Below the pieces are notes generated by a model. The model had not been told where the DNA came from. It ran no database searches and worked only from the letters and a program-made list of their open reading frames with translations. The position numbers and the translations under genes are program-made. This document shows positions 3,473-17,600 of a stretch of 19,231 nt of DNA, one piece after another. Every line of letters begins with the position of its first letter. The stretch's first letter is position 1. Source of the stretch: Prochlorococcus sp. AG-679-M23 (GTDB lineage Bacteria > Cyanobacteriota > Cyanobacteriia > PCC-6307 > Cyanobiaceae); assembly GCA_003208875.1 (NCBI GenBank), contig QCUR01000011.1, forward strand, positions 1 through 19,231, given 5' to 3'.

Positions 3473-3813
3473 AAATAACTCTTAATTATAGTGATAGAAG
3501 ATAGAGCTAAGAAGTAAAGAACTAAAGCAATCCTAAACGCAACAACTCTTCAATAAGCTGTTTATTCGGCAAGAGATATTGATTAGTAGTTAAGTGGGTA
3601 GAACCTCATTCAAACTTTCAAAAGAAATTTTAAAATGCAAACTGTGCAAGATGTGGCTACATTTTTAACTCTCAATTTATACTTTCATGTGATTTATCTA
3701 AATATGTCCAACAAAACGGTTTAGATAAATTTTTTTAATTAAATAAAAAAACTAACTTAATCTAAAAAATATAATTAAATCATAAAAAATCAGCAAGTGC
3801 TTTATTTGAGTAA

Positions 3814-4254: not shown

Positions 4255-5280
4255 TTAAAAATAAACTCCAGATGAGTGTAAAAACTCTTTGTAAACTTCT
4301 TGCCAGTGAATAATCCTCTGTTCAAGCCTATTAGGAGGTCCAAGTTTAAATTTTTCCATATAAGACTTTTGAACTGATTCGACAATAACTTTATCTTCAT
4401 CAAGAAAATTAAGGATATCATTTTTCCAAGCTTCTAAATCTTTTTCACACAAAGATGAAGAAGCTAATTTTATTTCTAAACTACATTGATCAATTCTTTG
4501 AGGGGGATAACTTATTAACAAAATACCTTTACCAGGCCAAACTATGATATGCGTCCATGGTAATAATCCAAAAGTATATAAATTTTCTCTACTATTTATT
4601 GGGGTAACAAGAACATTACAAAATTTACTAAATAAATACTTATAGTTCTTAATTGGACCTTGCTCTTTATGTAATGTATTCTTATGAGCGACCGCGACAT
4701 GATAGTCATCAAGTGTATTATCATGAGCTATCTTCCAATTACAATTTAATGTATTAGAAAATTCAGAAAATATACCATAATTTATATTCCATTCATTTTT
4801 ACATTTCAATTCAACTAGTTCAATTTGATCATCTATAGATATTGGTTGATCGCTAAAATTAATCCAAATTAAAGGCCCATTTACTAAAGAATTTACTTTT
4901 TCTAAAAAATAATCACTTAATACCATATTGACTTGAAAATCATCTTTTAATGGCAAATTTTTTAGTTCACCAAAACTATCAAAAGTCCAGCCATGGTAGG
5001 GACAAAAAATACTTTTAGAGGGATTACCTTTAGTTTTAGGCAAACATAATTCAGAACCACGATGCGGGCATCTATTTTTAAAAACAGTTATTGAATTATT
5101 TGCTGAACATGAAATAAATAATGATTGCTTTAAGAATTTTTTTTCTATTATTTCTCCAGCTTTAATTTCTCCAACAAAAATCAATGGATGCCAAAAATTT
5201 TTAGAATATTTATCTAATTCAAAATTAAATATTTGTTTATCGTTATAAAGCCATGTGGGCAAAAAACTCTTGTAAGACAT
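4255..5280 (-). CDS. Rieske non-heme iron oxygenase alpha subunit
   Basis: Rieske motif CPHRG...CPYHGW; mononuclear Fe motif DNTLDDYHVAVAH and a C-terminal ED; start overlaps the ATPase stop. Confidence 0.92.
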   Translation of the reverse strand: MSYKSFLPTWLYNDKQIFNFELDKYSKNFWHPLIFVGEIKAGEIIEKKFLKQSLFISCSANNSITVFKNRCPHRGSELCLPKTKGNPSKSIFCPYHGWTFDSFGELKNLPLKDDFQVNMVLSDYFLEKVNSLVNGPLIWINFSDQPISIDDQIELVELKCKNEWNINYGIFSEFSNTLNCNWKIAHDNTLDDYHVAVAHKNTLHKEQGPIKNYKYLFSKFCNVLVTPINSRENLYTFGLLPWTHIIVWPGKGILLISYPPQRIDQCSLEIKLASSSLCEKDLEAWKNDILNFLDEDKVIVESVQKSYMEKFKLGPPNRLEQRIIHWQEVYKEFLHSSGVYF

Positions 5281-6041
5281 TAATTTTTTTGGATACTTCT
5301 TAAATAATCAGATAATTCATATCTCAACTTTGAGAAATTTGGATCAAGTCTCAATTTATTTAAATCATCTTTTTGTAAATCAACTTTAACTTCTTTTATT
5401 ATTCTTCCAGGATTGGGAGCCAAAATACATATTCGCTCAGATAGCGCTAATGCTTCTTCAATATCATGCGTAATAAGAAGAACAGTCAATGAAGTTTTTT
5501 TCCATAGTTTATAAAGAAAACTCTGCATAGATTCTCTAATCTGCAAGTCCAAGGCTCCAAAAGGTTCATCCAAAAGCAAGATTTTTGGATTTGTAGCCAA
5601 AGCTCTAGCAATAGCAACCCTTTGTTGCATTCCTCCAGATAATTCTTTTGGATACTTAGAAGCTGAATCTTGAAGTCCCACTACTTCAAGTAAATAAGAT
5701 GTTCGATATTTTATTTCTTTTAATTTATAAGAATTCAAGTTCATTCCAAATGAAATATTCTCCTCTGCGGTAAGCCATGGGAAAAGACTATATTTCTGAA
5801 AAACCATCCCTCGATCTAAGCCAGGACCATGAACAACTTTTCCATCAACTTTTACGTTTCCTTTTGATGGATTTTCTAGTCCAGCAATAATCCTCAATAT
5901 AGTACTTTTACCTGATCCAGAACTCCCTACAAGAGTTTTAAACTCTCCCGAACTTATTGAAAAACTAACTTCATCAATTGCCTTTTTTTTATTAGACCCT
6001 TCTCCAAAGTATTTTGAAATATTATTTACATCCAGTTTCAT
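5280..6041 (-). CDS. ABC transporter ATP-binding protein (NitT/TauT family)
   Basis: Walker A GSSGSGKST, signature LSGGMQQR, Walker B LLLDEPFGALD, H-loop THD. Confidence 0.95.
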   Translation of the reverse strand: MKLDVNNISKYFGEGSNKKKAIDEVSFSISSGEFKTLVGSSGSGKSTILRIIAGLENPSKGNVKVDGKVVHGPGLDRGMVFQKYSLFPWLTAEENISFGMNLNSYKLKEIKYRTSYLLEVVGLQDSASKYPKELSGGMQQRVAIARALATNPKILLLDEPFGALDLQIRESMQSFLYKLWKKTSLTVLLITHDIEEALALSERICILAPNPGRIIKEVKVDLQKDDLNKLRLDPNFSKLRYELSDYLRSIQKN

Positions 6042-6863
6042 TTAAACAGCCCATTTGCATGTACGTCTTAAAAGAAATCTAAAGCTCATATCTAGAGTGA
6101 ATCCAATTAGCCCCAAAACTATTAATTCTGCAAATATTTGATCTGTACGAAAAAACCTCTGAGCTAATTGAATCCTTTTTCCTAAACCAACTTCTGCCGC
6201 AATTAATTCCGCAACAATCACTAGGTTCCATGAGGTTGCAATATTAATTCTTAAAGTATCAATAATACTTGGTAAAGAATATCTTGCTATTACTTTGATT
6301 AATAAATCTTTTGTATTACCACCTAAAGTAAGAGTCGTTTCTATAAGCTCCCTAGGAACAAATTTTACTGAATCCATAACCATCAAAACATTAAAATAAA
6401 CTGTTCCAATAAAAATTAATGCAATTTTTGGAGCTTCTTCAATTCCTAAATAAATAATCAGTAAAGGAGTAAAAGCAGCCGCAGGCATATATCTAAGCAT
6501 TGCAATCAAAGGTTCGCATAGTGCACAAAAAGAAGGGAAGGAACCCATTGCAATTCCTAAAGGAACAGACAAAATTGTCGCAATTATAAAACCTGCAAAA
6601 ACCCTACCAGTACTTGCAAATATATCTTGGAATAAGATTCCACTTTCAGCCATATCTAAAAGTGAATAAAAAACTGCTATAGGAGATGGCAAAAACAATT
6701 CACTTACCAGTTTTAGTTGACAAATTACTGACCAAAGTAAAAGAGGCAGCAAAAGTGATGCAATTTGAAGAAATTTTTTATTTAATTTATTTGGTTCAGT
6801 ACCAAATAAAAAGAGGGATAAAAAAAAAGATTTATCCCTCTTGATTAATTTTGAACTAATCAT
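6042..6863 (-). CDS. ABC transporter permease (NitT/TauT family)
   Basis: Multi-TM protein with LPSP, an EAA-like loop (ELIETTLTLGG) and IVAELIAA motif. Confidence 0.95.
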   Translation of the reverse strand: MISSKLIKRDKSFFLSLFLFGTEPNKLNKKFLQIASLLLPLLLWSVICQLKLVSELFLPSPIAVFYSLLDMAESGILFQDIFASTGRVFAGFIIATILSVPLGIAMGSFPSFCALCEPLIAMLRYMPAAAFTPLLIIYLGIEEAPKIALIFIGTVYFNVLMVMDSVKFVPRELIETTLTLGGNTKDLLIKVIARYSLPSIIDTLRINIATSWNLVIVAELIAAEVGLGKRIQLAQRFFRTDQIFAELIVLGLIGFTLDMSFRFLLRRTCKWAV

Positions 6864-6877
6864 TCTAATTCTTTTTA

Positions 6878-7876
6878 TTAACTGATATTTTTTACAAAAG
6901 AAGAATTGAACAAATTGCTCATATCGGGTTTTTCAGGGATAAATCCCACCTTAACCATAAAGTCTGCCATTTGTTTCGCAGCATAAGGCATATGTTTCAT
7001 ACCCAATCCACCACTAAAAGCTTCTAAATTTTCTTCTAATGAAAAGAACCTAGTTCCACCTTTGTATTGTTTATATTCTCTTGTTGGAATTCCAGCTCTT
7101 TTAGCCATGATTTTTTCAGACTTTCTTGGATTCTTTTCCATGAATGCTCTTACATCCCACCAAGTTTTTACTATTTTTTGAACATCATCTGGTCTTTCAG
7201 AAATCAAATCTCCACTAACAGCTAATAAATCTGGAATTGCTCCTGGATAATCTTTTGAACTTGCAATAACTCTTGCTCCGGGTCTCTTCATTGCGGTGCC
7301 CGTAAATGGAGGGAAAGCCCCAACTGCATCTACTTTCCCTGCTGCGAATGCAGTAGCAGCTTGATCAGTTGGAAGTCCCTTAATGATTACATCATCTCTT
7401 GTGAGCCCGACATCATTCAAAGCTAGGACTAAAAGAAAATCATCTACAACTCCTTCTTCAACTGCCACAGTTTTTCCTTTTAAATCGGCAACACTTTTAA
7501 TTGATTTATCTGCGATTATTTGATCATTACCTGCAGAATTATCATTTACTAGTACAACTACTTCTCCACCATTCTCTCCTGGTAGAAAAGAAATTGTGTC
7601 ATTTAGGGTTTGAGAATTTCCGTCAATTTTACCAGCAGCAAAGGTTTCCATTGATTGTACATATCCATCAAACCATTTCATCTCAACATTGACGCCATTC
7701 TTTTCAAACATTTTTTGATCAACAGCTATTGCCCATGGCCACCAACCTGCCCAGTTACTATATCCGAGAGTAATCGGATCACCTTTTGGAGCGGCTGGGC
7801 TTGAAAGTGTACTCAATGAAATTGCTAAAACTAAAGCAATAAAAGAAAAGGCAAAAGCTTTAAACTTTTTAAACAT
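6878..7876 (-). CDS. ABC substrate-binding protein, probably guanidine-binding (Sll1080-like)
   Basis: Signal peptide; GYSNWAGWWPW and NDNSAGND motifs; located in the gdmH cluster. Confidence 0.88.
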   Translation of the reverse strand: MFKKFKAFAFSFIALVLAISLSTLSSPAAPKGDPITLGYSNWAGWWPWAIAVDQKMFEKNGVNVEMKWFDGYVQSMETFAAGKIDGNSQTLNDTISFLPGENGGEVVVLVNDNSAGNDQIIADKSIKSVADLKGKTVAVEEGVVDDFLLVLALNDVGLTRDDVIIKGLPTDQAATAFAAGKVDAVGAFPPFTGTAMKRPGARVIASSKDYPGAIPDLLAVSGDLISERPDDVQKIVKTWWDVRAFMEKNPRKSEKIMAKRAGIPTREYKQYKGGTRFFSLEENLEAFSGGLGMKHMPYAAKQMADFMVKVGFIPEKPDMSNLFNSSFVKNIS

Positions 7877-7936
7877 TTTTTATTAAAAAAAAAGATTATG
7901 TAATATCAATACTTAAGAAAAAATAAATATAAAGTT

Positions 7937-7950
7937 GTAATGATGGATAC
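7937..7950. promoter_or_regulatory. NtcA-box-like site upstream of the ABC transporter
   Basis: GTAatgatggaTAC (GTA-N8-TAC) in the 107-bp hypB-SBP gap, 60 bp from the SBP start. No perfectly spaced TAN3T. Confidence 0.5.
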
Positions 7951-7983
7951 TTTTAGAAAATTCCTAAGATTTGTATTTCTCCC

Positions 7984-8664
7984 TTACTTTTTAAATTCTT
8001 GAATCTTTTTACTTATCCAATTTTTCCATAAATCAAATCCAGTCATTGATGTTGAAGAAATTTCTATCACCTCAGCGTTAGGATTCGTTAAAGAAATATT
8101 TGATTTTAATTCATCAATATCGAAATTTAGATATGGCAATAAATCAACTTTAGTAATCAAAACTAAATCTGCTTCACGAAACATAACTGGATACTTCAGA
8201 GGTTTATCTTCCCCTTCAGTAATACTCAAAAGTGCGACTTTAAAATGTTCCCCTATCTCAAATTCTGCTGGACAAACTAAATTACCCACATTTTCTACTA
8301 ATAAAATGTCTAATAAAGAGGGATTAATTTTTGTTTCTAAAATTTTAAATCCACCATTAACCATATTTGCATCTAAATGACATGCTCTTCCAGTTGTAAT
8401 TGGAACAACTGGAATATTTAATTTCTCTAACCTCGCAGCATCTAAGGTGGTCGTCATATCACCTTCCAAGACGGCAACCTTAATTTTTTTTGATAGATCT
8501 TCTAAAGTCTTTTCAAGTAATTTTGTTTTACCTGAACCTGGACTACTCATTATGTTTAAACAAATTACCTTACACTCATTAAACTTTTTTTTATTAATTT
8601 CAGCTTGGTGGCTATTTTGATGAAGAATATTTAGTTCAATTTTGTCTGAAAGTGGTAAATGCAT
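7984..8664 (-). CDS. hypB: HypB-type Ni-insertion GTPase (GhaB-like)
   Basis: SSPGSGKT P-loop, ACHLDA, ENVGNLVCPAEF, EGEDKPLKYP, TKVD motifs. Confidence 0.95.
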   Translation of the reverse strand: MHLPLSDKIELNILHQNSHQAEINKKKFNECKVICLNIMSSPGSGKTKLLEKTLEDLSKKIKVAVLEGDMTTTLDAARLEKLNIPVVPITTGRACHLDANMVNGGFKILETKINPSLLDILLVENVGNLVCPAEFEIGEHFKVALLSITEGEDKPLKYPVMFREADLVLITKVDLLPYLNFDIDELKSNISLTNPNAEVIEISSTSMTGFDLWKNWISKKIQEFKK

Positions 8665-8704
8665 TTATATATTGAAATACTTATTTATTCTAAATAGTAA
8701 ACCC

Positions 8705-9061
8705 TTACTTTTCTTTAAAATCAATAGATGAAATTTTTAACTCTCTTCCTCTTATAATCTCCTCCAAATTCAAATTACAACAAGGTGATTTATAACCATT
8801 CTCTTTTTTTGGGTAGTACGAATTTTTACATTTAGAGCATCTGCCTTCAAAAGGTATTGTCTCAATAGCAATCTCAGAAGAATCTAACCATGAGCCAAAA
8901 ACAGCGGCATTGAAAGTATTAATTAAAGATATTGGCTCTACACAAGTAAATTCTCCAATCTTAAGATTAATTTTTTCAACTACTATTTTTTCTTTATTTT
9001 TTTTCTCTGCCCATTCTTCCATAGAAAGAATCAGGCATTTTGTCATATCTACTTCATGCAC
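8705..9061 (-). CDS. hypA: HypA-type Ni metallochaperone (GhaA-like)
   Basis: N-terminal MHE Ni motif, CSKC...PCC Zn site, GREL C-terminal motif. Confidence 0.93.
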   Translation of the reverse strand: MHEVDMTKCLILSMEEWAEKKNKEKIVVEKINLKIGEFTCVEPISLINTFNAAVFGSWLDSSEIAIETIPFEGRCSKCKNSYYPKKENGYKSPCCNLNLEEIIRGRELKISSIDFKEK

Positions 9062-9067
9062 AATAAT

Positions 9068-10258
9068 TTATCTCCATTTCTTATCAACCGACATATTACA
9101 TTTATCAAAAATCCATTCTGGCTTTGATTTTCTTGGGAGCTGACCACTTACTACAAGGTGCGCGATGGAATCACAAATGACTCTGGTAGCTAGTAAAGCT
9201 GTCATATCGCTTACATCGTATGGGGGAGAAACTTCAACCAACTCAAGTCCACATACATTTACGTTTCTAATAATATATTCTAAAAGTTTTAATGCTTCTC
9301 GAGGTAACAAACCTCCGGGCTCAGGCCAACCGGTTCCTGGTACAAATCCAGCATCAATACAATCTATATCAAAAGAAATATATACACAATCAGTTCCATC
9401 GGTAGCTTTTTCAATGGCAAAATCTGCTGCTTCTTTTAAACCCATATCACAAATATCAGTAACTGTTAAAACATTCGTACTTCGTTCCCTACAAATTTTC
9501 ACTCCTTCTCTTGGGACTTGCCACCCTCCAATTCCTAGTTGTACGAGATTTTTTGCTGGTGCATTTTTCATATTAGTTGCATGAAACCATGGACAGGTAT
9601 GCATTCTTTCATCTAAATCTGTTTCTTGAGTATCCACATGTCTATCAAAGTGAATAATTCCAACTTTTTTATCCCCTAAATGGCGACAAACTCCTCTTAC
9701 TGTCGGGAAACCTATCGAATGATCCCCTCCTAATATGATTGGGAACGCACCACTTGCAAAAATATGAGCGACACCTTTTGAAATTTGATCAAAACTTTTT
9801 TCATTATTTGCTGGAATTGTAAAAATATCTCCCACGTCACATATAGAAATTTGCTCTCTAAGGTCAACTCCCATTTCGTAATTATAGGGCGTGTAAAGAG
9901 CAGAAATTTTTCTTATACCTTGAGGACCAAATCTTGTTCCTGGTCTATATGTAGTTCCTGAATCATGCGGTACTCCAACTATCGCAACATCATAATTTCC
10001 TACTTCATTTACATTTTCAACATATGGGGCTTTCATAAATGTATTTATCCCCGCAAAATGAGGTAACTCACCTCTTGAAAAAGTAGATATTTTTCTATCG
10101 ACTATACTTTTAGCAGCTTCCAAACCATATTCTTTAGCCCGAGCAACTTCATTTTCCCATCCTTTGAGAGGCAATTTTGATTCCTTATCTAAGGCATCCA
10201 TCCCCTCGCTAGGATGTTTCCTCTCAAATTCAGAATTTTGATTTGATTCAGTTGTCAC
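9068..10258 (-). CDS. gdmH: Ni-dependent guanidine hydrolase (ureohydrolase family, Sll1077-like)
   Basis: GGDHS, HFDRHVD and SFDIDCID metal motifs. RMHTCPW, TGWPEPGG and the long N-terminal extension (TFSRGELPH) match my recollection of Synechocystis Sll1077. Followed by hypA/hypB/ABC as in sll1077-1082. GTG start. Confidence 0.9.
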   Translation of the reverse strand: MTTESNQNSEFERKHPSEGMDALDKESKLPLKGWENEVARAKEYGLEAAKSIVDRKISTFSRGELPHFAGINTFMKAPYVENVNEVGNYDVAIVGVPHDSGTTYRPGTRFGPQGIRKISALYTPYNYEMGVDLREQISICDVGDIFTIPANNEKSFDQISKGVAHIFASGAFPIILGGDHSIGFPTVRGVCRHLGDKKVGIIHFDRHVDTQETDLDERMHTCPWFHATNMKNAPAKNLVQLGIGGWQVPREGVKICRERSTNVLTVTDICDMGLKEAADFAIEKATDGTDCVYISFDIDCIDAGFVPGTGWPEPGGLLPREALKLLEYIIRNVNVCGLELVEVSPPYDVSDMTALLATRVICDSIAHLVVSGQLPRKSKPEWIFDKCNMSVDKKWR

Positions 10259-10527
10259 AGTTTTAAAAAAATTTTTTCATCTAAATTAATACTGTCAATA
10301 AAAATCAAATCAAACCATAAATTGATAAAAAAAATCTTTTAGCTTTTTTATTCTGACAGAAATTTGTGAAGTATTTTATTTACTGAAGAAAATATAGATA
10401 TTAACCCCCTACCCTTCCACACTTTTTTAAATTGATAATTTAATAGATAATAAACTTATAAAAGCAACTCTTAAAGAATTTAATTCATGATTCATCCACG
10501 AGTAGAATTTTCTGATAATCCACTGAC

Positions 10528-10625
10528 ATGACAGAACTTAATTACTGGCTAATGCAAAGTGTACACTTCTAACTATTAATGGGATCTGAAGTTTTACACT
10601 TAATTTAACCAAACTTTAACCAAAC
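10528..10625 (+). repeat. EVE-gene 5' fragment / att-like scar, copy 1
   Basis: Encodes MTELNYWLMQS; core TACTGGCTAATG at 10543-10554; tandem TTTAACCAAAC x2 at 10604-10625. Confidence 0.75.
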
Positions 10626-10737
10626 TTTTAATTGATTTGTATTCGGTTAATATTATTCAAAAAGTTCAATCAAGTGCTGACAGATATTTAAAAACTAAAT
10701 ACTATAAGTCTAAATAATTTTCTAGAAATTCAAATTC

Positions 10738-11163
10738 ATGATCAAGAATTTATTCATAGCATTGGCTTTTGCATTAATGCTTATCAACCCAAGCATTTCT
10801 ATAGCTGCAGAATCTCCTGTTGATGTACAAGAAATCTTCACCTCTTCAGAAAACATCGATGGAGATAATTTTAAGTATCCAAAAGGAAAAGCTGAAATGC
10901 GTTTGATTAGAGTAGAAGTTGAAAATGGAGCCACTATACCTATGCATTCTCATCCTGTACCTTTACTGGGTCATATTGAAAGTGGTGAATTAACTCTTGC
11001 TGAAAAGACAGGTATTAGTAAAACCTTTAAGGAAGGAGATTCATTTGTTCTCTCAGCAAATACTCCTGCTCATACAATGGCTAATAGTGGCGATTCGTCA
11101 GCAGTTATGTGGGTTGCTGTGGCTTCAGCAGAAGGTTTACCTACTTTGAATCCTGAAGAATAA
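10738..11163 (+). CDS. Secreted cupin-domain protein
   Basis: Signal peptide (SIA/AES); cupin motifs PMHSHP...ESGEL and EGDSF...PAH. Confidence 0.85.
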   Translation: MIKNLFIALAFALMLINPSISIAAESPVDVQEIFTSSENIDGDNFKYPKGKAEMRLIRVEVENGATIPMHSHPVPLLGHIESGELTLAEKTGISKTFKEGDSFVLSANTPAHTMANSGDSSAVMWVAVASAEGLPTLNPEE

Positions 11164-11170
11164 ATCAACC

Positions 11171-11219
11171 TGATTGACAGTTAATCTAAAATAAGGGGCA
11201 ATTAGCTCCTTTTTTAATG
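11171..11219 (+). promoter_or_regulatory. Conserved 46-nt leader (TGATTGACA-N4-ATCTAAA, hairpin, T-run, ATG), copy 1
   Basis: Aligns without gaps to 14178-14226. Confidence 0.55.
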
Positions 11220-11600
11220 TCAAATACTAAAGCCATAGAAGATTTAATTAATGGTTATGCAACCAGTGAAGATTCTTCTTTTCTAATACCAAATGTAACT
11301 GAGGATTTTTTAGCTGTAAGACCAAGTGGAAATCCAATATCTGCTAAGGGATTAGTGGGAATGTTTGATAGTAAAGACTTAGTTGCAGAATCATCAGAAT
11401 TAATCAAAACCCACAAAATTGAAATTTACGGTGAGATAGCTTACGCAGTTTTTACTTTAAATGAAATCTTCAGTTATAAAGGAAATAAAAATAAAGATCT
11501 TTCAACTTATACTTGCATTTTTAAAAATTTTAATGGTACTTGGAAGTATTCTTGGATGCAAAGATCTCAAGGCATTACTGATATGACCACATGGGAATAA
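11217..11600 (+). CDS. NTF2/SnoaL-like protein (DUF3804-like)
   Basis: 127 aa; FLAVRPSGNPISAKG...WKYSWMQRS pattern recalled for this family. Confidence 0.8.
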   Translation: MSNTKAIEDLINGYATSEDSSFLIPNVTEDFLAVRPSGNPISAKGLVGMFDSKDLVAESSELIKTHKIEIYGEIAYAVFTLNEIFSYKGNKNKDLSTYTCIFKNFNGTWKYSWMQRSQGITDMTTWE

Positions 11601-11763
11601 ATGAAACGCTTATTATTTTTGGATCTTCTATAAACATTTCAATAAAAAGGATTTAATAATTCATATATTTTGAGTTTTTTAATGCTAAAGATAATTAAAT
11701 TTAGATACAAACAAATCTGGATGGATGAAATGATAATTAGGAAAAATTTAGATAAAAAAATAA

Positions 11764-11904
11764 TTAAATTTCGCAGCCCCGATATGAGGGGTTCTCTTCA
11801 CACTTCAGTTTCCAATAAATTACTTTAATATTAGCTCCGTTATCTATGTTGTTAATAGTCCTAAAGTATTTAGGAATAATTGCATAAGGAACTCTTTTAT
11901 TCAT
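11764..11904 (-). CDS. 46-aa microprotein with CP12-like C-x3-P-x4-C motif
   Basis: MNKRVPYAIIPKYFRTINNIDNGANIKVIYWKLKCEENPSYRGCEI*; SD AGGAGGA; YW-x3-C matches 492-644. Confidence 0.78.
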   Translation of the reverse strand: MNKRVPYAIIPKYFRTINNIDNGANIKVIYWKLKCEENPSYRGCEI

Positions 11905-11919
11905 GATTTCCTCCTACTC

Positions 11920-11998
11920 ACTACACCTATGTTCTAACTACTAACGCATATCATTTATGAGTATCAGTATGTACGGTTTAAGGAAGAATAAAGTACGG
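11920..11998 (-). promoter_or_regulatory. Class 1 upstream element, copy 2
   Basis: On the minus strand: CCGTAC-N16-CCGTAC, then TTAGAACATAGGTGTAGT; homologous to 399-476. Confidence 0.6.
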
Positions 11999-12052
11999 GA
12001 AGAAGACCAAATTTTGAGACTGTTATTTAATTGCCAGTCCTAGGATTAATAC

Positions 12053-12098
12053 ATGGTTGTCATGAGGCAGTTGCAGGGATACAACTGAAGCCAACCAT
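12053..12098 (+). other. Long hairpin in probable 5' UTR
   Basis: ATGGTTG/CAACCAT outer stem and CAGTTG/CAACTG inner stem, 24 nt before ATG 12123. Confidence 0.45.
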
Positions 12099-12122
12099 AA
12101 AATATAAATTGCATAATTAAAT

Positions 12123-12305
12123 ATGACTTATTACAGTTGCTTCGATCAAAATGGACAGATTATTGCTAGATGTCAAACTTTTCAAGATATTGAAGTTTTA
12201 AAAAAAATGGGGAGACCAATAGTAGAAATAAAAGAGATGAAGAATGAGGAATTGGTTGTCTGTTCATTAACCGGAAGTCCATCTGATTTCAACATGGATT
12301 ACTAA
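12123..12305 (+). CDS. Small Cys-containing hypothetical protein
   Basis: 60-aa ORF with three Cys (YSC, ARC, VCSLTGSP). Confidence 0.75.
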   Translation: MTYYSCFDQNGQIIARCQTFQDIEVLKKMGRPIVEIKEMKNEELVVCSLTGSPSDFNMDY

Positions 12306-12440
12306 AAAATTTTTTATTAAAACAAACCATAAACAATTTGAGATTCATCAAAATAGAAAACATACTAAATTTGTTTTTTGTATTTTTTATAACTTCTTTT
12401 TAGTATTCATTGGTCAGAATGAAATTCCATTAAATATATT

Positions 12441-12584
12441 ATGTCAAAAGATTTAGATGATAATTCTTATGAAAAAAGAATTGAAAATATAGAAAAAGGT
12501 AAATCTTATTTAAATTCAAATGGTTTTTTTCGTTCTAAATCAAACCTTTTTGAAGATATACAAAGATTCATTTATAAAAAGTAA
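12441..12584 (+). CDS. 47-aa hypothetical microprotein
   Basis: MSKDLDDNSYEKRIENIEKGKSYLNSNGFFRSKSNLFEDIQRFIYKK*; no family recognised. Confidence 0.45.
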   Translation: MSKDLDDNSYEKRIENIEKGKSYLNSNGFFRSKSNLFEDIQRFIYKK

Positions 12585-12720
12585 AAGGTAAGTAACCCTC
12601 ACTACTAACTAAAAAAAATAAAGAGTTATAAAATTTTAAGAGGTATATAAACCACAAAAATAAAATTTAGACAAAAAATTATGAGCAAGAGCTTTCATTA
12701 AGCTAAAAAAAGATTATTCT

Positions 12721-12891
12721 TTAAATGAAGTAATTATTTGTTTCTTTATTAAAAGTCATTTCTTGAGCCCCCTTCATGCATCCTCCAGCTGGGTAGCTAA
12801 TAACCTTTTTTGATATTGCACCGATACCTATAGCGACAATAGAAATACCTAATATTGCTTTTGATCTTTTGCTCGCGAGAAGAGATTTCAT
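12721..12891 (-). CDS. 56-aa hypothetical protein with signal/TM segment
   Basis: MKSLLASKRSKAILGISIVAIGIGAISKKVISYPAGGCMKGAQEMTFNKETNNYFI*; co-oriented downstream of clpS. Confidence 0.55.
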   Translation of the reverse strand: MKSLLASKRSKAILGISIVAIGIGAISKKVISYPAGGCMKGAQEMTFNKETNNYFI

Positions 12892-12944
12892 TGAGATTTT
12901 GTATTTATTAAATAATAGGAATATTGACTTTTATTATGTGGATT

Positions 12945-13241
12945 TTAAGCAGCTTCAATTGGTGCCATTGTTAATCCCCTGATAACCAGTTGCTCGTGGT
13001 ATAATTCTGCCTGTTCAAGGTTCCCTCTCCATACTTCCGCCAAACCTGACTTGTCTACTTGAATGGCAAGATTCCATGATCTTTTTTCACTCATTCCTGG
13101 AATAATTACTAGCAGGCAATTAGCAACATGTTCAAAAGTATTAAAATTATCATCTAAAACTATTACTCGTGCTTCCGGATATTTTGTTTTTTTTATCTTT
13201 GGTTCTAAGACCGTTGTGGGTGATGTGGTAGAAAGGTCCAT
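12945..13241 (-). CDS. clpS: ATP-dependent Clp protease adaptor ClpS
   Basis: VIVLDDNFNTFEHVANCL N-degron pocket motif; QVDKSGLAEVW...AELYHEQL...GLTMAP typical of cyanobacterial ClpS. Confidence 0.92.
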   Translation of the reverse strand: MDLSTTSPTTVLEPKIKKTKYPEARVIVLDDNFNTFEHVANCLLVIIPGMSEKRSWNLAIQVDKSGLAEVWRGNLEQAELYHEQLVIRGLTMAPIEAA

Positions 13242-13352
13242 CTTTACTGCTTTTGTTTTAGCTTTAGATCTACTATTAATTTTTTTAAATTCTAGCTTTC
13301 TTTCAAGTCTACGGAGACCAGACCATGTTGCGGTTTTCCGTTTAGACGATAA

Positions 13353-13438
13353 AACTACTGGCTAATGAAGAGTGATCCAGTTTGATATCAGAGGGGTTCT
13401 CAAGGATTTATAATTATTTACCCAAACTTTACCCAAAC
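13353..13438 (+). repeat. EVE-gene 5' fragment / att-like scar, copy 2
   Basis: AACTACTGGCTAATGAAGAGTGATCCA (NYWLMKSDP); tandem TTTACCCAAAC x2 at 13417-13438. Confidence 0.75.
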
Positions 13439-13497
13439 CTTTTATTGATTAACCGTAAATTTAAAAAAGAAGTAATTAACTCCATTTTATATGACGA

Positions 13498-13986
13498 CTA
13501 AGGGGTAACTTTATCAAAAATCTCTTCTTGGATATTCTCTCCAAAGGAATAGACCTCATAACTTTTGTAATGATCGTGAGAGTGTGAACCATTATTGTGT
13601 ACTTCCATTCCTGGAGAACCATGAGGCATCCCTGGTACAGCAATACCTGCAATGGTTGGAGATTTTAAATTTAACTTTTTAATTGATTCAAAAGGCACAT
13701 GACCCTCTATAAGATAATTTCCCATTTTTGCTGTGTGACAAGACCTGAAATTATTTGGAATTGAATATTGATCTTTAATTAATGAGATATCTTCAACAAT
13801 ATTATCGACAACTTCTAAACCATTACTCCTTAAATGGTTAACCCATTTTTTACAACAACCACAAGAACCTGATCTATATGAAATAATTTTTGGGAAATTC
13901 AGATTATTTTCACTTTTTATTGGTGCAGCTTTTAAAGCTGGAGTAAATATTAAAAGTGCAAGTACTGAAAAAAATGATTTTTTCAC
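13498..13986 (-). CDS. DUF411 (CopG-like) periplasmic metal-binding protein
   Basis: Signal peptide; CGCC..W, SCHTA, IEGHVP and GIAVPGMPHGSPGME motifs; His-rich insert. Confidence 0.9.
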   Translation of the reverse strand: MKKSFFSVLALLIFTPALKAAPIKSENNLNFPKIISYRSGSCGCCKKWVNHLRSNGLEVVDNIVEDISLIKDQYSIPNNFRSCHTAKMGNYLIEGHVPFESIKKLNLKSPTIAGIAVPGMPHGSPGMEVHNNGSHSHDHYKSYEVYSFGENIQEEIFDKVTP

Positions 13987-14110
13987 AAAGGTTGTTTGAC
14001 TGTTTTTCTATTTTATATATTTTCCTATTTTAAAACTGAAATTTAATATTAAAAATCCTTATTTGAAGAGTTTTAACAATAGGTTCTGAATTTTTTAAAG
14101 TATAATTTTT

Positions 14111-14164
14111 TTGGTGTTTCTTTGGAAGAGTTTCACCAAGAGGGGCTAATTTTAGCCCCTTTTA
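14111..14164 (+). ncRNA. Candidate small two-hairpin RNA ending in an intrinsic terminator
   Basis: TATAAT at 14101-14106; stem TTGGTG/CACCAA; terminator AGGGGCTAA-TT-TTAGCCCCT followed by a T run. Confidence 0.35.
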
Positions 14165-14177
14165 TCTAAAATATCTT

Positions 14178-14226
14178 TGATTGACATTCGATCTAAACTG
14201 GAGGGATAAAACTCTCTTTTTTAATG
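14178..14226 (+). promoter_or_regulatory. Conserved 46-nt leader, copy 2
   Basis: TGATTGACAttcgATCTAAA, GAGGG/CTCTC hairpin, TTTTTTAATG. Confidence 0.55.
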
Positions 14227-14379
14227 GCAAATCCAGATCAAAAAACGATATTAATAGAGCAGGCTTATGAGGAAATTAAAGAAATTTGTAATAAATTCCA
14301 AGAAGACTCTGGAGCTTCAGATATGGAAGTAAAAACTTTATTAAGAGAACTTGCTAGAGTTTGGGAAAAAGAAAATTAA
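14224..14379 (+). CDS. 51-aa helical hypothetical protein
   Basis: MANPDQKTILIEQAYEEIKEICNKFQEDSGASDMEVKTLLRELARVWEKEN*. Confidence 0.7.
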   Translation: MANPDQKTILIEQAYEEIKEICNKFQEDSGASDMEVKTLLRELARVWEKEN

Positions 14380-14493
14380 ATGGAATTAGTGCATCAAATA
14401 TTTCCTCCTTGGCATATCTATATGGATGTATTTCTTCTTGGTGTTGGTTTATATGTTTATCTAAGAATTACTAAAAAAATAAATACAAAATAA
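14380..14493 (+). CDS. 37-aa single-TM microprotein, copy A
   Basis: MELVHQIFPPWHIYMDVFLLGVGLYVYLRITKKINTK*; differs from copy B by 6 synonymous and 3 conservative codon changes. Confidence 0.7.
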   Translation: MELVHQIFPPWHIYMDVFLLGVGLYVYLRITKKINTK

Positions 14494-14683
14494 ATGAAAC
14501 GCTAACTAAGCTGTTTCTATATTTTTTCTAAACTTTCTTCGACCAAATATCTTCGATAAACTAAATAAAATACTTTGGATTTAGCTGGCTTATGAAAAAG
14601 TTCACAAAATGCTATGCCAGCAACCCTATTTACCGTAAATCATAGTCTATGACTGAACCTAACTACTGGCTAATGAAAAGTGA
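14380..14683 (+). repeat. ~300-bp direct repeat, copy A
   Basis: Colinear with 16858-17171; ends inside the EVE fragment. Confidence 0.9.
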
Positions 14684-14748
14684 GCCTGTCTAGCTATTAC
14701 TGGAATCTCAAGAATTCTAAATTTTCTATTCACACTTTATTCACACTT
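14649..14748 (+). repeat. EVE-gene 5' fragment / att-like scar, copy 3
   Basis: MTEPNYWLMKSEPV*; tandem TATTCACACTT x2 at 14727-14748. Confidence 0.8.
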
Positions 14749-14806
14749 TTGCAGACTGAAAAACTAACCGATATTGACTTCGGTCAGTTGGTATATTTCT
14801 AACCAA

Positions 14807-14974
14807 ATGCAAGATTGGATTGTGAGTAGAAAACCTGACTATCCTATTCTGGAAGAATGTATTGCTTGGGTAGAAGAAAAGTTAAAGAGAGATGGATCGG
14901 ACTATAAATTAACAAAACAAGATCTTGATGATATTGAAACTACTTATGAATTTCAAACTAGTGATTTAAATTAA
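14807..14974 (+). CDS. Hypothetical acidic small protein
   Basis: MQDWIVSRKPDYP...; ATG 14807 preferred to TTG 14774. Confidence 0.6.
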   Translation: MQDWIVSRKPDYPILEECIAWVEEKLKRDGSDYKLTKQDLDDIETTYEFQTSDLN

Positions 14975-14977
14975 ATT

Positions 14978-15154
14978 TTAAACTCTTTCTTTAAATGATT
15001 TTTTAAAAAGAGTATTTGGTTTTTCTGAAGCAGTTTTCTTAAGATATTCAGGAATATAACTATATGAAACTAATTTCTCATCAGCATTATGAAAGTAGTT
15101 TTGAAATTCATTAAAGTACTTCTGGGGTAGAGTGAGAGGTTTTTTAATCTTCAT
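14978..15154 (-). CDS. 58-aa microprotein, N-terminus similar to the C-x8-C family but lacking Cys
   Basis: Start reassigned to MKIKKPLTLPQKYFNE (SD AGGAG upstream); compare MKLQTQFTVPHKQLRD and MNKRVPYAIIPKYFRT. Confidence 0.65.
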   Translation of the reverse strand: MKIKKPLTLPQKYFNEFQNYFHNADEKLVSYSYIPEYLKKTASEKPNTLFKKSFKERV

Positions 15155-15168
15155 TTTTATTCTCCTGA

Positions 15169-15351
15169 TTAGTAATGAAAATATGGAATTTCTTCTGATG
15201 GCTTTGGAACAAAAGAACAAATTCCAAATTGCATGCATTCCATTTGGTCATCATTTAAAGCTCTCGAGTTTGAATTCCGACCTGAGAATGTATCTAGAAA
15301 AAAATGTATTGTATTTTGAATCTTATGTTTATAAGGATTTCCGTAAGACAT
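15169..15351 (-). CDS. 60-aa hypothetical protein with C-x5-C
   Basis: Strong SD AAGGAGG in the leader TCAAGGAGGTTAATCATG; ECMQFGIC motif. Confidence 0.7.
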   Translation of the reverse strand: MSYGNPYKHKIQNTIHFFLDTFSGRNSNSRALNDDQMECMQFGICSFVPKPSEEIPYFHY

Positions 15352-15390
15352 GATTAACCTCCTTGATTTTTTGAAAATTTTTAAACCCTA

Positions 15391-15552
15391 TTATTCAATA
15401 ATGCAATAGGGGTCACTTTGTGATTTGCTGCAAAAAATTGTTTTGCGTAGATAGGCTTTTTCATATTTTCTATAAATACTTTGAGTTATAAAAACTCCAA
15501 AGTAAATAAGTAAGACAGTCAATATGAGTAGCTCTAATCCTAAGTTGGTCAT
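15391..15552 (-). CDS. 53-aa fusion: MTNLG TM microprotein plus C-x8-C tail
   Basis: MTNLGLELLILTVLLIYFGVFITQSIYRKYEKAYLRKTIFCSKSQSDPYCIIE*; SD AAGGAGG; 13/27 identities to the N-terminus of 730-831. Confidence 0.78.
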   Translation of the reverse strand: MTNLGLELLILTVLLIYFGVFITQSIYRKYEKAYLRKTIFCSKSQSDPYCIIE

Positions 15553-15586
15553 TTGATTAACCTCCTTTGATTTGAGTGTTATTTAG

Positions 15587-15614
15587 TACGTTTGATATAG
15601 AAAAATCAAGCGTA
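15587..15614. promoter_or_regulatory. 28-bp dyad TACG-N2-TGAT-N8-ATCA-N2-CGTA, copy 2
   Basis: Minus strand reads TACGctTGATttttctatATCAaaCGTA, 34 bp upstream of ATG 15552. Confidence 0.65.
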
Positions 15615-15713
15615 TGAATACCTAAAAAAATATCAAGTAACAACTTTAAATAACTTCGGAACTAAAAATATGACTTTAATTCTGATACTAAATTTTAAAT
15701 AAATCAGCATAAT

Positions 15714-15741
15714 TACGGATATACAAAAAAAATTATTCGTA
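15714..15741 (+). promoter_or_regulatory. TACG-N20-CGTA element, copy 3 (outer half-sites only)
   Basis: TACG 15714-15717 and CGTA(CTAA) 15738-15745, with the same 20-nt spacing as copies 1 and 2. Confidence 0.45.
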
Positions 15742-15749
15742 CTAATTTC

Positions 15750-15941
15750 CAATTAATCAAATGGAGGGATTAGAAATGATCGATAGTCCACCAGAGAAGT
15801 TTATTAGATTGGTTTAAACAGCCAACTAAATTAGCAGCAAGGATCAAAGATTTAGGTGCGTTGTTAATTTATTCCCAGACATAACTAAGTACTAAGTGAA
15901 GAGATTGTTTCCTAAAGGCGGGAGTACAATCTCTTTTTTTT
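15750..15941 (+). ncRNA. Candidate island sRNA or dual-function RNA (possibly Yfr8/Yfr9-like)
   Basis: GC-richer noncoding block ending in the hairpin AAGAGATTG...CAATCTCTT plus a long T run. Family assignment is from memory only; the 5' end is approximate. Confidence 0.4.
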
Positions 15942-16021
15942 AGCTTATTAAAAGGTGAGATTACTCATAGAGATTCATAAAATTTATGCTTAAATATTCG
16001 AGATTCTTATTCAACTTATAA

Positions 16022-16393
16022 ATGGTTTACTCACAAGCAAAAGTTATTGCAGGTGGATTAGCTCATATCCCAATAGTCATATCAGTGTTTTATTTTATAA
16101 TGAAAACCTTCAATAAGAGAGCATTAGAATTTGCTGAAGCGAATAAATCAATAAAACTAAAGTCAAAAATAGTAGAATCAAAAACTGAAGCGAAGCCATT
16201 GATTGCAGTGAAAGCAGAAACAGAAGAGGTAAAAGAAACCGAAGTTAAAGAAGAGAAAGCACAAGCTATAAAGGAAATCTCAAATAAGCTAGAAGAGATT
16301 GAAAAAAAAGCAGAAGATGTAAAAGAAAAAGTGAAAAAGAAACAGAAAGATAAGAAAAAAAAGAAGAAAAAAAAAGATATGAAGAGAGATTAA
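16022..16393 (+). CDS. Membrane-anchored protein with Lys/Glu-rich low-complexity tail
   Basis: N-terminal TM (GGLAHIPIVISVFYFIM), charged tail, poly-Lys end. Confidence 0.75.
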   Translation: MVYSQAKVIAGGLAHIPIVISVFYFIMKTFNKRALEFAEANKSIKLKSKIVESKTEAKPLIAVKAETEEVKETEVKEEKAQAIKEISNKLEEIEKKAEDVKEKVKKKQKDKKKKKKKKDMKRD

Positions 16394-16510
16394 TTAATTG
16401 AAAGGATTGTCATCCAATTTGCATTCCATTCATATGGTAGTTTTTGCTCAAGCATTTATGCTTTGGGGTTCTCAGCACTATATTTCCAGAGTCGATAGGA
16501 GTATAAATAA

Positions 16511-16590
16511 TTCAGGAGTCAAAAGCACTTCATCGACTTTGTGGACACTGAGGTGCATGACTTGAAGAGGGCGAAAAGCCCTCTTATTTA
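16511..16590 (+). ncRNA. Candidate structured sRNA with terminator
   Basis: TATAAA at 16502-16507; nested stems TTCAG/TTGAA, AGTCA/TGACT, GCACTTCA/TGAGGTGC; terminator AAGAGGGC-GAAAA-GCCCTCTT. Confidence 0.45.
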
Positions 16591-16857
16591 TTTAGTTAAA
16601 AAGATAGATCATAAATACTAAATCACATAAATAAACATAATAACTTTGTATCAATATGAACGTAATGAATAAAATTTAACATTGCTACAGTTGAGGTGCG
16701 TTGTTAATATTGGCATCTTTCCGCTGATATTCCCGCCCGGATTTAAACCAATTAAATGTTGATCTAAATTAGAGAATATTGAAGACCTCTTTTTTAATGG
16801 ATAAAAGATTTATAGCGGAAAAGATAATGATTCTTGATTTCTTTAATTGCTTAAAGA

Positions 16858-16971
16858 ATGGAATTACTTCATCAAATATTTCCTCCGTGGCATATATACT
16901 TAGACGTTTTTCTGCTTGGTATTGGTTTATATGTTTATCTAAGAATTACTAAAAAAATAAATACAAAATAA
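16858..16971 (+). CDS. 37-aa single-TM microprotein, copy B
   Basis: MELLHQIFPPWHIYLDVFLLGIGLYVYLRITKKINTK*. Confidence 0.7.
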   Translation: MELLHQIFPPWHIYLDVFLLGIGLYVYLRITKKINTK

Positions 16972-17171
16972 AAGAAACGCTAACTAAGCTATTTCTATAT
17001 TTTTCTAAACTTTCTTCGACAAACTATCTTCGATAAACTAGATAAAATGCCTTGGATTTAGCTGGCTTATGAAAAAGTTAACAAAATTCCATACCAGCAC
17101 CATACCAGCAGCCCTATTTTTCCCAAAATATAGACTATGACTAAACCTAACTATTGGCTAATGAAAAGTGA
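16858..17171 (+). repeat. ~300-bp direct repeat, copy B
   Basis: Colinear with 14380-14683; carries an extra tandem CCATACCAGCA (17089-17110). Confidence 0.9.
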
Positions 17172-17244
17172 ACGGGATGCATTTTTACAGTCATAGCAAG
17201 AGTTTTATTTTTTACAAAAAATTCCATTCGAACCCTATTCGAAC
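17137..17244 (+). repeat. EVE-gene 5' fragment / att-like scar, copy 4
   Basis: MTKPNYWLMKSERDA; ATTCGAAC repeated with 11-bp period at 17223-17244. Confidence 0.75.
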
Positions 17245-17600
17245 TTTTAAGAGAAATTAAAATATAAATACGGAGCAAGATATAGATACAATTTTTACTT
17301 TCAATTTATACTTTCTTATGATTTATATAAGCCAGTTAAAATTTTAAATCTGTTTTATAGTTTTATTAATTATTCACAAAATTAATGGATAACTTTAGTT
17401 ACTACGATTATCTAAATTCGATATCATTTCATCCACCTTTAATGATAATAACTACAGCAGTATTTTTCTTTATAAGAAGAAAATTCTTATTAGATGAAAA
17501 AAAATACTAAACTGCTTTATTTAATATTAAAATCTTTAAATGAATTAAAGATTAAATAAAGGAAAGAAGTTAAAAAAACCAAAGTATATATTGATTCCAT

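Follow-up and report, generated by a model that had tools for sequence, protein, structure and literature searches.

Introduction

In the available text of the tycheposon report (10.1101/2020.12.28.424599), genomic islands grow by tandem integration at seven tRNA or tmRNA targets, with 474 of 501 integrations at such genes and no protein-coding target named. Here we analyse a 19,231-nucleotide stretch of Prochlorococcus sp. AG-679-M23 (contig QCUR01000011.1 of GCA_003208875.1, complete and on the forward strand; hereafter 'the window', or contig C11), which carries four repeats that copy the 5' end of a gene for an EVE-domain protein. We consider it very probable that these repeats are attachment-site junctions of Prochlorococcus integrative elements which target the EVE 5' end.

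Like tycheposons, these elements carry an inward-facing tyrosine integrase at one end, measure 5-12 kb, have optional, putative replication genes together with nutrient and defence cargo, and integrate in tandem, pushing older elements into an additive island. Unlike tycheposons, as far as the same partial text describes them, they target a protein-coding gene at its 5' end and replace its start (10.1101/2020.12.28.424599). The EVE element works like a tycheposon and is not classed as one here; the unnamed recombinases described in that text as not associated with tRNAs may include the EVE-type integrase.

Three other systems bear comparison, each as described in the accessible part of its source. 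The picocyanobacterial integrase of cluster158946 is likewise missed by standard profiles and accompanies variable cargo with restriction-modification and nutrient genes, its best template being lambda integrase (1Z1B, 13% identity); it lies upstream of tRNA-Phe or tRNA-Cys and keeps the equivalent of Arg212 (Flamholz et al., PMC10187409), where the EVE branch has Ser. EVE-type integrases of three genomes (G328, G502 and G131) are at least 150 kb from tRNA-Cys and tRNA-Phe. IntDOT, which belongs to conjugative elements of Bacteroidetes, lacks the first catalytic Arg and has a downstream Arg in its place, and the EVE elements are likened to it by this active-site pattern, not by sequence kinship (Smyshlyaev et al., PMC8138268). 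Finally, in islands within protein-coding genes found by TIGER/Islander, attP completes the interrupted gene as it would here, and the available main text mentions neither EVE nor Prochlorococcus (PMC12884075). The literature searched reports no EVE integration target, and a review of EVE proteins is without cyanobacteria, murD or integrases. The junctions may also relate to PRE1, a repeat that Coleman and colleagues are said to have found enriched in Prochlorococcus islands in 2006.

Four copies of the EVE gene start

The genome (1.65 Mb, ~31% GC) has a single EVE gene at C2:302077, on the minus strand and ~6.3 kb inside contig C2, and the four cores in the window copy its 5' end. The cores lie on the plus strand at 10543, 13356, 14664 and 17152; their frame reads NYWLMQS or NYWLMKS and ends 9, 9, 9 and 14 codons further on, respectively. 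A genome-wide search allowing up to two mismatches returned six matches, namely these four, the intact EVE gene and C7:89501, the last without an arm pair, and the EVE 5' end is the only other true copy of the core in the genome. The core shows an inverted-repeat shape, its pattern had no match in 300 shuffled versions of the window, and the named records that share the motif are Prochlorococcus. No tRNA genes were found in the window.

Downstream of the cores, tandem 11-bp repeats (the 'arms') start at +61 in junctions 1 and 2 (11/11 match in each), at +61/+63 in junction 3 (best 11/11 at +63) and at +71 in junction 4 (9/11); a tandem matching at 9/11 or better occurs in 28/5000 random 43-bp windows from the fetched loci. 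Upstream arms are found at about -63, as two copies at junction 4, a decayed pair at junction 1, a single copy at junction 3 and none at junction 2. Junctions 1, 3 and 4 are arm-stub-arm hybrids, and copy 2 is not a full EVE 5' end because it has neither an ATG nor an upstream arm. The B type of the upstream arm of junction 1 is also the type that precedes the intact EVE gene of this genome. A fifth arm remnant lies at about 3601-3617. All seven arm pairs of the five types in the genome are on C11 and the end of C2, in a single orientation.

A preliminary description, made from the sequence of the window by itself, had reported the four plus-strand cores encoding NYWLM(K/Q)S and then diverging, and a middle motif in copies 1-3; the genome-wide search gave the same positions and frame, and the motif was found in those three copies. 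Its offsets for the 11-bp tandem (+61 in copies 1-3, +71 in copy 4) were reproduced, with copy 3 fitting best at +63, while its one-sided layout gave way to arms flanking the cores on both sides. The intact EVE gene that it looked for is the one on C2. In loci of five relatives (L059, L060, L067, L080 and L312) the end of C11 continues into the end of C2, and the stubs of the window are therefore very probably upstream of the EVE gene on the same strand. The mapped features are collected in Table 1.

Table 1. Junctions, integrase scraps and cargo in the window, numbered from its first nucleotide (ORF, open reading frame; sRNA, small RNA).
Positions	Strand	Feature	Basis or detail
3486-3609	+	Broken 5' scrap of an EVE-targeting integrase gene, with stops (covering roughly nt 87-213 of a complete copy)	127-nt blastn match to the L282 integrase, 82% identical
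3601-3701	+	Core-less remnant: E-type arm and element end	78% like 17230-17330; repeat family D5; joined to the integrase scrap via a short shared word
10482-10503	+	Junction 1: upstream arm, decayed B-type pair	72% to C2:302175-302056
10528-10572	+	Junction 1: EVE stub MTELNYWLMQSVHF* (*, stop) containing the core	Core search
10553-10559	+	Junction 1: putative 7-bp overlap	Placed from the inverted repeat
10581-10625	+	Junction 1: middle motif (10581-10591) and downstream A-type arm pair (10604-10625)	Motif and arm scan
10738-13241		Cargo, junctions 1-2: cupin, DUF3804, small ORFs, ClpS (minus strand)	ORF and domain scans
13356-13438	+	Junction 2: core, middle motif, A-type arm pair (13417-13438)	Left flank without arm or ATG
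13498-14379		Cargo, junctions 2-3: DUF411 protein, small ORF	ORF and domain scans
14379-14683	+	D-type element right end, one upstream arm copy (14612-14622), EVE start ATG at 14649	86% like 16857-17171
14664-14748	+	Junction 3: core, middle motif, C-type arm pair (14727-14748)	Arm scan
14754-14784	+	Integrase 3' scrap (about codons 503-512) fused to the junction 3 arm	26/31 nt identical; weak alone
14774-16856		Cargo, junctions 3-4: small ORFs, sRNA Yfr11 (15755-15940)	ORF scan, Rfam
16857-17171	+	Second D-type element right end, upstream arm pair (17089-17110), EVE start ATG at 17137	Repeat and arm scans
17152-17244	+	Junction 4: core, with an E-type arm pair (17223-17244) displaced outwards by one helical turn	Arm scan

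Junction anatomy across relatives

The exact core is present in 85/121 congeners, 19 of which, besides this genome, carry two or more. From 388 distinct core sites in the fetched loci, 93 intact EVE genes (some of them non-cyanobacterial) and 284 stubs with enough flanking sequence were kept and the others dropped. A typed upstream arm pair precedes 67/93 intact genes and a downstream arm follows 0/93, whereas a downstream arm is present in 238/284 stubs. The arms sort into five sequence types, spaced -60 to -66 upstream and mostly +60 to +63 downstream of the core, with offsets of +71 to +74, as in junction 4, in 21/208 stubs. EVE N-termini vary with arm type (MPQQEPS, MTEIN, MTEPN and others), which shows that the gene start is supplied by the element.

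After 52/161 untyped pairs were dropped, the arm following one junction was of the same type as the arm preceding the next in 62/109 pairs, against a mean of 24 and a maximum of 38 in 5000 shuffles, although the genomes are related and the shuffle overstates the significance. The two arms within a single junction match at chance level (25/152, with 29 expected). The matching holds between junctions but not within them, and a unit therefore spans the interval between consecutive junctions.

The two halves of a junction occur in different combinations in different genomes. The flank before junction 3 precedes an intact EVE gene in 16/35 adjacent cores elsewhere and that before junction 4 in 16/36, with other arms in the rest, and the breakpoints are therefore at the core. 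The left flank of junction 2 joins seven distinct cores with other arms elsewhere and no intact EVE gene, and represents either a secondary site or a decayed end. This flank (13284-13359) is 78% like C4:33745-33820, a stretch ~1 kb from tRNA-Ser(tga) which also has a word resembling the middle motif after it. At C2:304425 (minus strand) a fused E-type arm pair, matching the junction 4 arm, lacks a core, with left-end context to one side of it and right-end context to the other; it is probably an arm-to-arm deletion, and possibly a sixth, core-less junction.

One could suppose instead that the EVE promoter and 5' end were duplicated and underwent homologous recombination inside a hypervariable island, giving rise to the stubs, or that the stubs serve as small RNAs or mini-ORFs, the integrase being a bystander. 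The window does hold a 316-nt duplication, the island holds sRNAs and this genome has no integrase gene; yet such an origin leaves unexplained the arms downstream of stubs as against 0/93 intact genes, the matching of arms across elements and the fixed place of the integrase described below, and no Rfam family covers the stubs. We judge this explanation extremely improbable and already largely refuted.

A dedicated integrase beside the core

A listing of long ORFs near the cores of relatives revealed a protein of ~527 residues (527-528) that begins just after the downstream arm. The EVE core lies 79-156 bp before the integrase start in 22/23 distinct starts with upstream DNA (three duplicate rows removed and one contig-truncated row set aside), the exception being a long-branch relative. 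Profile matches occur in 53/401 family genomes. A structure model (pLDDT, the predicted local distance difference test score, 81.7) has full-length lambda integrase as its best match (505 columns, E 4e-8) and shows N-terminal strands and a helix, with a core-binding domain match to 3nrw. On this model, the enzyme is predicted to have the arm-binding, core-binding and catalytic domains of a lambda-type tyrosine recombinase. Integron integrase ranks 40 among the fold matches, and IntI, unlike the EVE-type enzyme, has no arm-binding domain.

In a quick tree of 52 proteins, 20 EVE-adjacent integrases fall into one 23-row branch with a support of 98, which also holds two contig-truncated rows and one long branch. 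Lys379, Arg464 and Tyr496 are invariant in 20/20; Tyr takes the place of the first His of the catalytic set, and the His/Trp position is Asn in 17 and His in 3. A PF00589 search of this genome gave no integrase at the EVE site, and among the genus matches listed for this profile none was noticed beside an EVE core.

The window retains two scraps of such a gene (Table 1). The 5' scrap at 3486-3609 is by far the best match to the L282 integrase in the genome (nhmmer E 4.7e-6) and is fused to the core-less arm. The 3' scrap matches at 27/36 positions against a control maximum of 24, with an nhmmer E of 0.025 that is weak alone.

A dedicated branch at the site bears on whether the junctions could be scars of prophages, or the work of the host core integrase or of tRNA-targeting tycheposon integrases acting at a secondary site. 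The genome does have a core integrase, and the L102 element, beside what by eye resembles a partial tRNA-Pro, shares the middle motif and the 11-bp arm design. The EVE branch, however, aligns to the L102 family over no more than 58 columns (probability 2.4%), and no phage structural genes were found among the cargo ORFs of complete elements (58 scanned with Pfam, 17 with PHROGs), so that we consider such an origin very improbable.

Complete elements and the proposed mechanism

Eight complete elements of 5.6-12.0 kb were recovered from relatives, each consisting of an EVE stub, an arm, the inward-facing integrase, cargo, a matching arm and a restored EVE gene, with the same arm type at both ends in all eight; L302 has a split integrase and L115 a truncated one. 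Cargo was scanned in seven and includes PhoX, a type I restriction system, a DnaB-like helicase, TPR proteins and a DUF3804 gene. PhoX occurs with an hli-like gene in L305 and type I restriction-modification in L303; for replication, L115 has the DnaB-like helicase and L301 a weak match to a RepB-type regulator, with none recognised in the other five. No conjugation genes were seen in the elements. Two small ORFs conserved near the right end (L303:10760-11077, ~106 residues, and 10471-10710, Cys-rich, 80 residues; similar ORFs in L302, L304, L305 and L039) have no family match and are candidates for an excisionase or regulator. Contigs of four metagenome runs showed no circle joint for L304, although contigs cannot show absence.

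In 6/8 complete elements the last three bases of the putative 7-bp overlap at the left junction differ from those of the rebuilt gene. The difference suggests that integration tolerates unlike overlaps, with selection keeping the EVE frame intact. Overlap counts over the core sites of the fetched loci are biased, as the site scans required the attB-type overlap. IntDOT tolerates unlike overlaps, and those of attDOT and attB are given as different in the part of the literature available.

The anatomy of the junctions, the adjacency of the integrase, the matched arms, the empty site in high-GC relatives and the scraps in the window are observed; we infer the crossover position, the order of events, the activity of the enzyme and the route of transfer in the following scheme. 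The ~527-residue arm-binding tyrosine recombinase would insert the element about ten codons into the EVE gene. The element would come with an EVE promoter region, a start codon and the first codons of its own, such that its right end reconstitutes the gene while the former 5' end is displaced as a stub to its left end, beside the integrase. Each new arrival would shift older material towards murD and produce a junction consisting of the arm of the older element, an EVE stub and the arm of the newer one. Most integrase genes would later be deleted, as in the window, with cargo persisting as island DNA.

The preliminary description had proposed that the island grew by repeated tyrosine-integrase integration into the EVE gene, and had looked for integrases beside the arm repeats, integrase-bearing elements ending at this sequence and breaks of synteny at the sites. 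A dedicated integrase beside the same arms in relatives, eight complete elements that end at the core with matched arms, and reshuffled junction halves whose flanks adjoin different arms or the intact EVE gene all agree with that proposal. Its further claim, that each junction bounds a cargo module, fails in the window, where the units have decayed or recombined. We also refine the earlier picture in that most junctions are hybrids of two neighbouring elements, not plain scars.

Several observations weigh against integration by this enzyme. Searches with the EVE-type integrase found no intact copy in this genome, and those with PF00589 found no intact integrase in the window; matches are present in only 17/285 congeners, and the protein stays below the cut-offs of Pfam, NCBIfam and PHROGs. 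Consecutive arm types in the window never match (A then none, A then D, C then D), and 47/109 typed consecutive pairs mismatch elsewhere, to which the relatedness of the genomes and the untyped pairs behind the arm statistic must be added. The mismatches within the window indicate that its units are decayed or recombined, and we regard the stretches between its junctions as such remains and not as discrete cargo modules of one element each. Only 4/8 complete elements show a clear inverted repeat at the core. Viral contigs gave 0 core and 0 integrase matches; a looser pattern gave 11 matches, none beside an EVE-type integrase and none a core with arms. An EVE stub at G109:C1:1539530 (L035) lies ~676 kb from the EVE gene of that genome on the opposite strand, and the L102 stub sits beside another element; secondary sites or rearrangements therefore occur. 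Lastly, the first catalytic Arg is Ser (Ser300) in 20/20 EVE-adjacent integrases. Arg377, two residues before Lys379, may stand in for it by analogy with IntDOT: Ser300 is paired with Arg377 in 31/31 proteins and Arg300 in 0/20 (99/99 and 0/7 in alignment A3), counts which reflect a single evolutionary event and not many.

Units that lack an integrase might in addition have been moved in trans, as non-autonomous cassettes mobilised by a visiting EVE-type integrase into an integron-like array. The arm-integrase 3' fusion of junction 3 recurs, in longer form, in 37 other stubs, giving 38/226 with an arm of either of two types joined at nearly one breakpoint around codon 500; typed junction pairs have a median spacing of 3.0 kb, many with matching arms; and identical junctions at L042:16208 and 18755, 2547 bp apart, mark a unit without an integrase that is present in tandem. 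The same picture would, however, result from a single old deletion that spread by descent and homologous recombination, and arm types differ at the two ends of each window unit. Trans-movement, which would add to and not replace element integration, is a possibility that we rate as somewhat doubtful.

The empty site and the murD-EVE island

In 12/29 family loci, all with a GC content of 0.61-0.71, murD directly precedes EVE without a phased arm pair of these types, and an arm pair precedes EVE in 12 of the other 17. Near-complete congeners (28/28) all have murD and EVE on one strand with murD 28.8-74.6 kb upstream, and Yfr20 lies in the interval. In this genome murD and Yfr20 are on contig C6 and point to its start, an arrangement that fits a contig order of C6, C11, C2. 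The available part of PMC2518516 gives Yfr20 as the only non-coding RNA of island 5, which it describes as a phosphorus and high-light island. Some of the DNA between the two genes, on the murD side, may be old and fixed.

Integration at EVE would explain how one of the main variable islands of Prochlorococcus grew without a tRNA anchor. The murD-EVE island would have its anchor in a protein-coding gene, for which enzyme, attachment site and arm code are all defined, and its origin becomes directly testable. Prochlorococcus is a genus that is hard to engineer, and the enzyme and its site are a candidate native integrase and target for this.

Wider integrase family

Distant relatives of the integrase were found at the 3' ends of ychF, ycf3 and a histidine phosphatase gene, at the 5' end of rsmE and, by eye, probably at the 3' ends of rpsD and iscA (loci L358, L360, L363, L364, L365, L374, L375, L376, L380 and L390). 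In 20 regions of such relatives, ARAGORN detected no tRNA adjacent to the integrase. Many att sites in the wider family also carry the middle motif, a possible binding site for a host factor. These observations point to an integrase family missed by Pfam, NCBIfam and PHROGs which may use a shifted active-site arginine. More broadly, and tentatively, at slightly less than even confidence, we propose an undescribed clade of picocyanobacterial integrases that targets the ends of protein-coding genes and not tRNAs, with the EVE branch as an eighth Prochlorococcus hotspot which built island 5, swaps the EVE promoter and N-terminus with every arrival, has a relocated catalytic arginine, tolerates unlike overlaps and moves cassettes in trans.

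The L102 integrase was considered as the enzyme of the EVE site and rejected, as it belongs to another att site. At L102:11850-12100 an integrase of the same design is accompanied by an arm pair, a partial tRNA seen by eye, the motif GGATCTCAAGG and a second arm pair.

Cargo and neighbouring genes

The DUF3804 gene of the window is identical, over the 70 residues compared, to the gene inside complete element L302. On the minus strand, 4255-10258 holds a cluster of genes for an arginase-family hydrolase, HypA, HypB, an ABC importer and a Rieske oxygenase. Alignments of this cluster with relatives stop at about 10320-10340, just ahead of junction 1, and it may therefore have arrived through the EVE site. 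No guanidine riboswitch was found upstream of the agmatinase-like gene in the window. Beyond junction 4, an ORF of 97 residues at 18180-18473 matches cytochrome b559 (PF00283) at its C-terminus.

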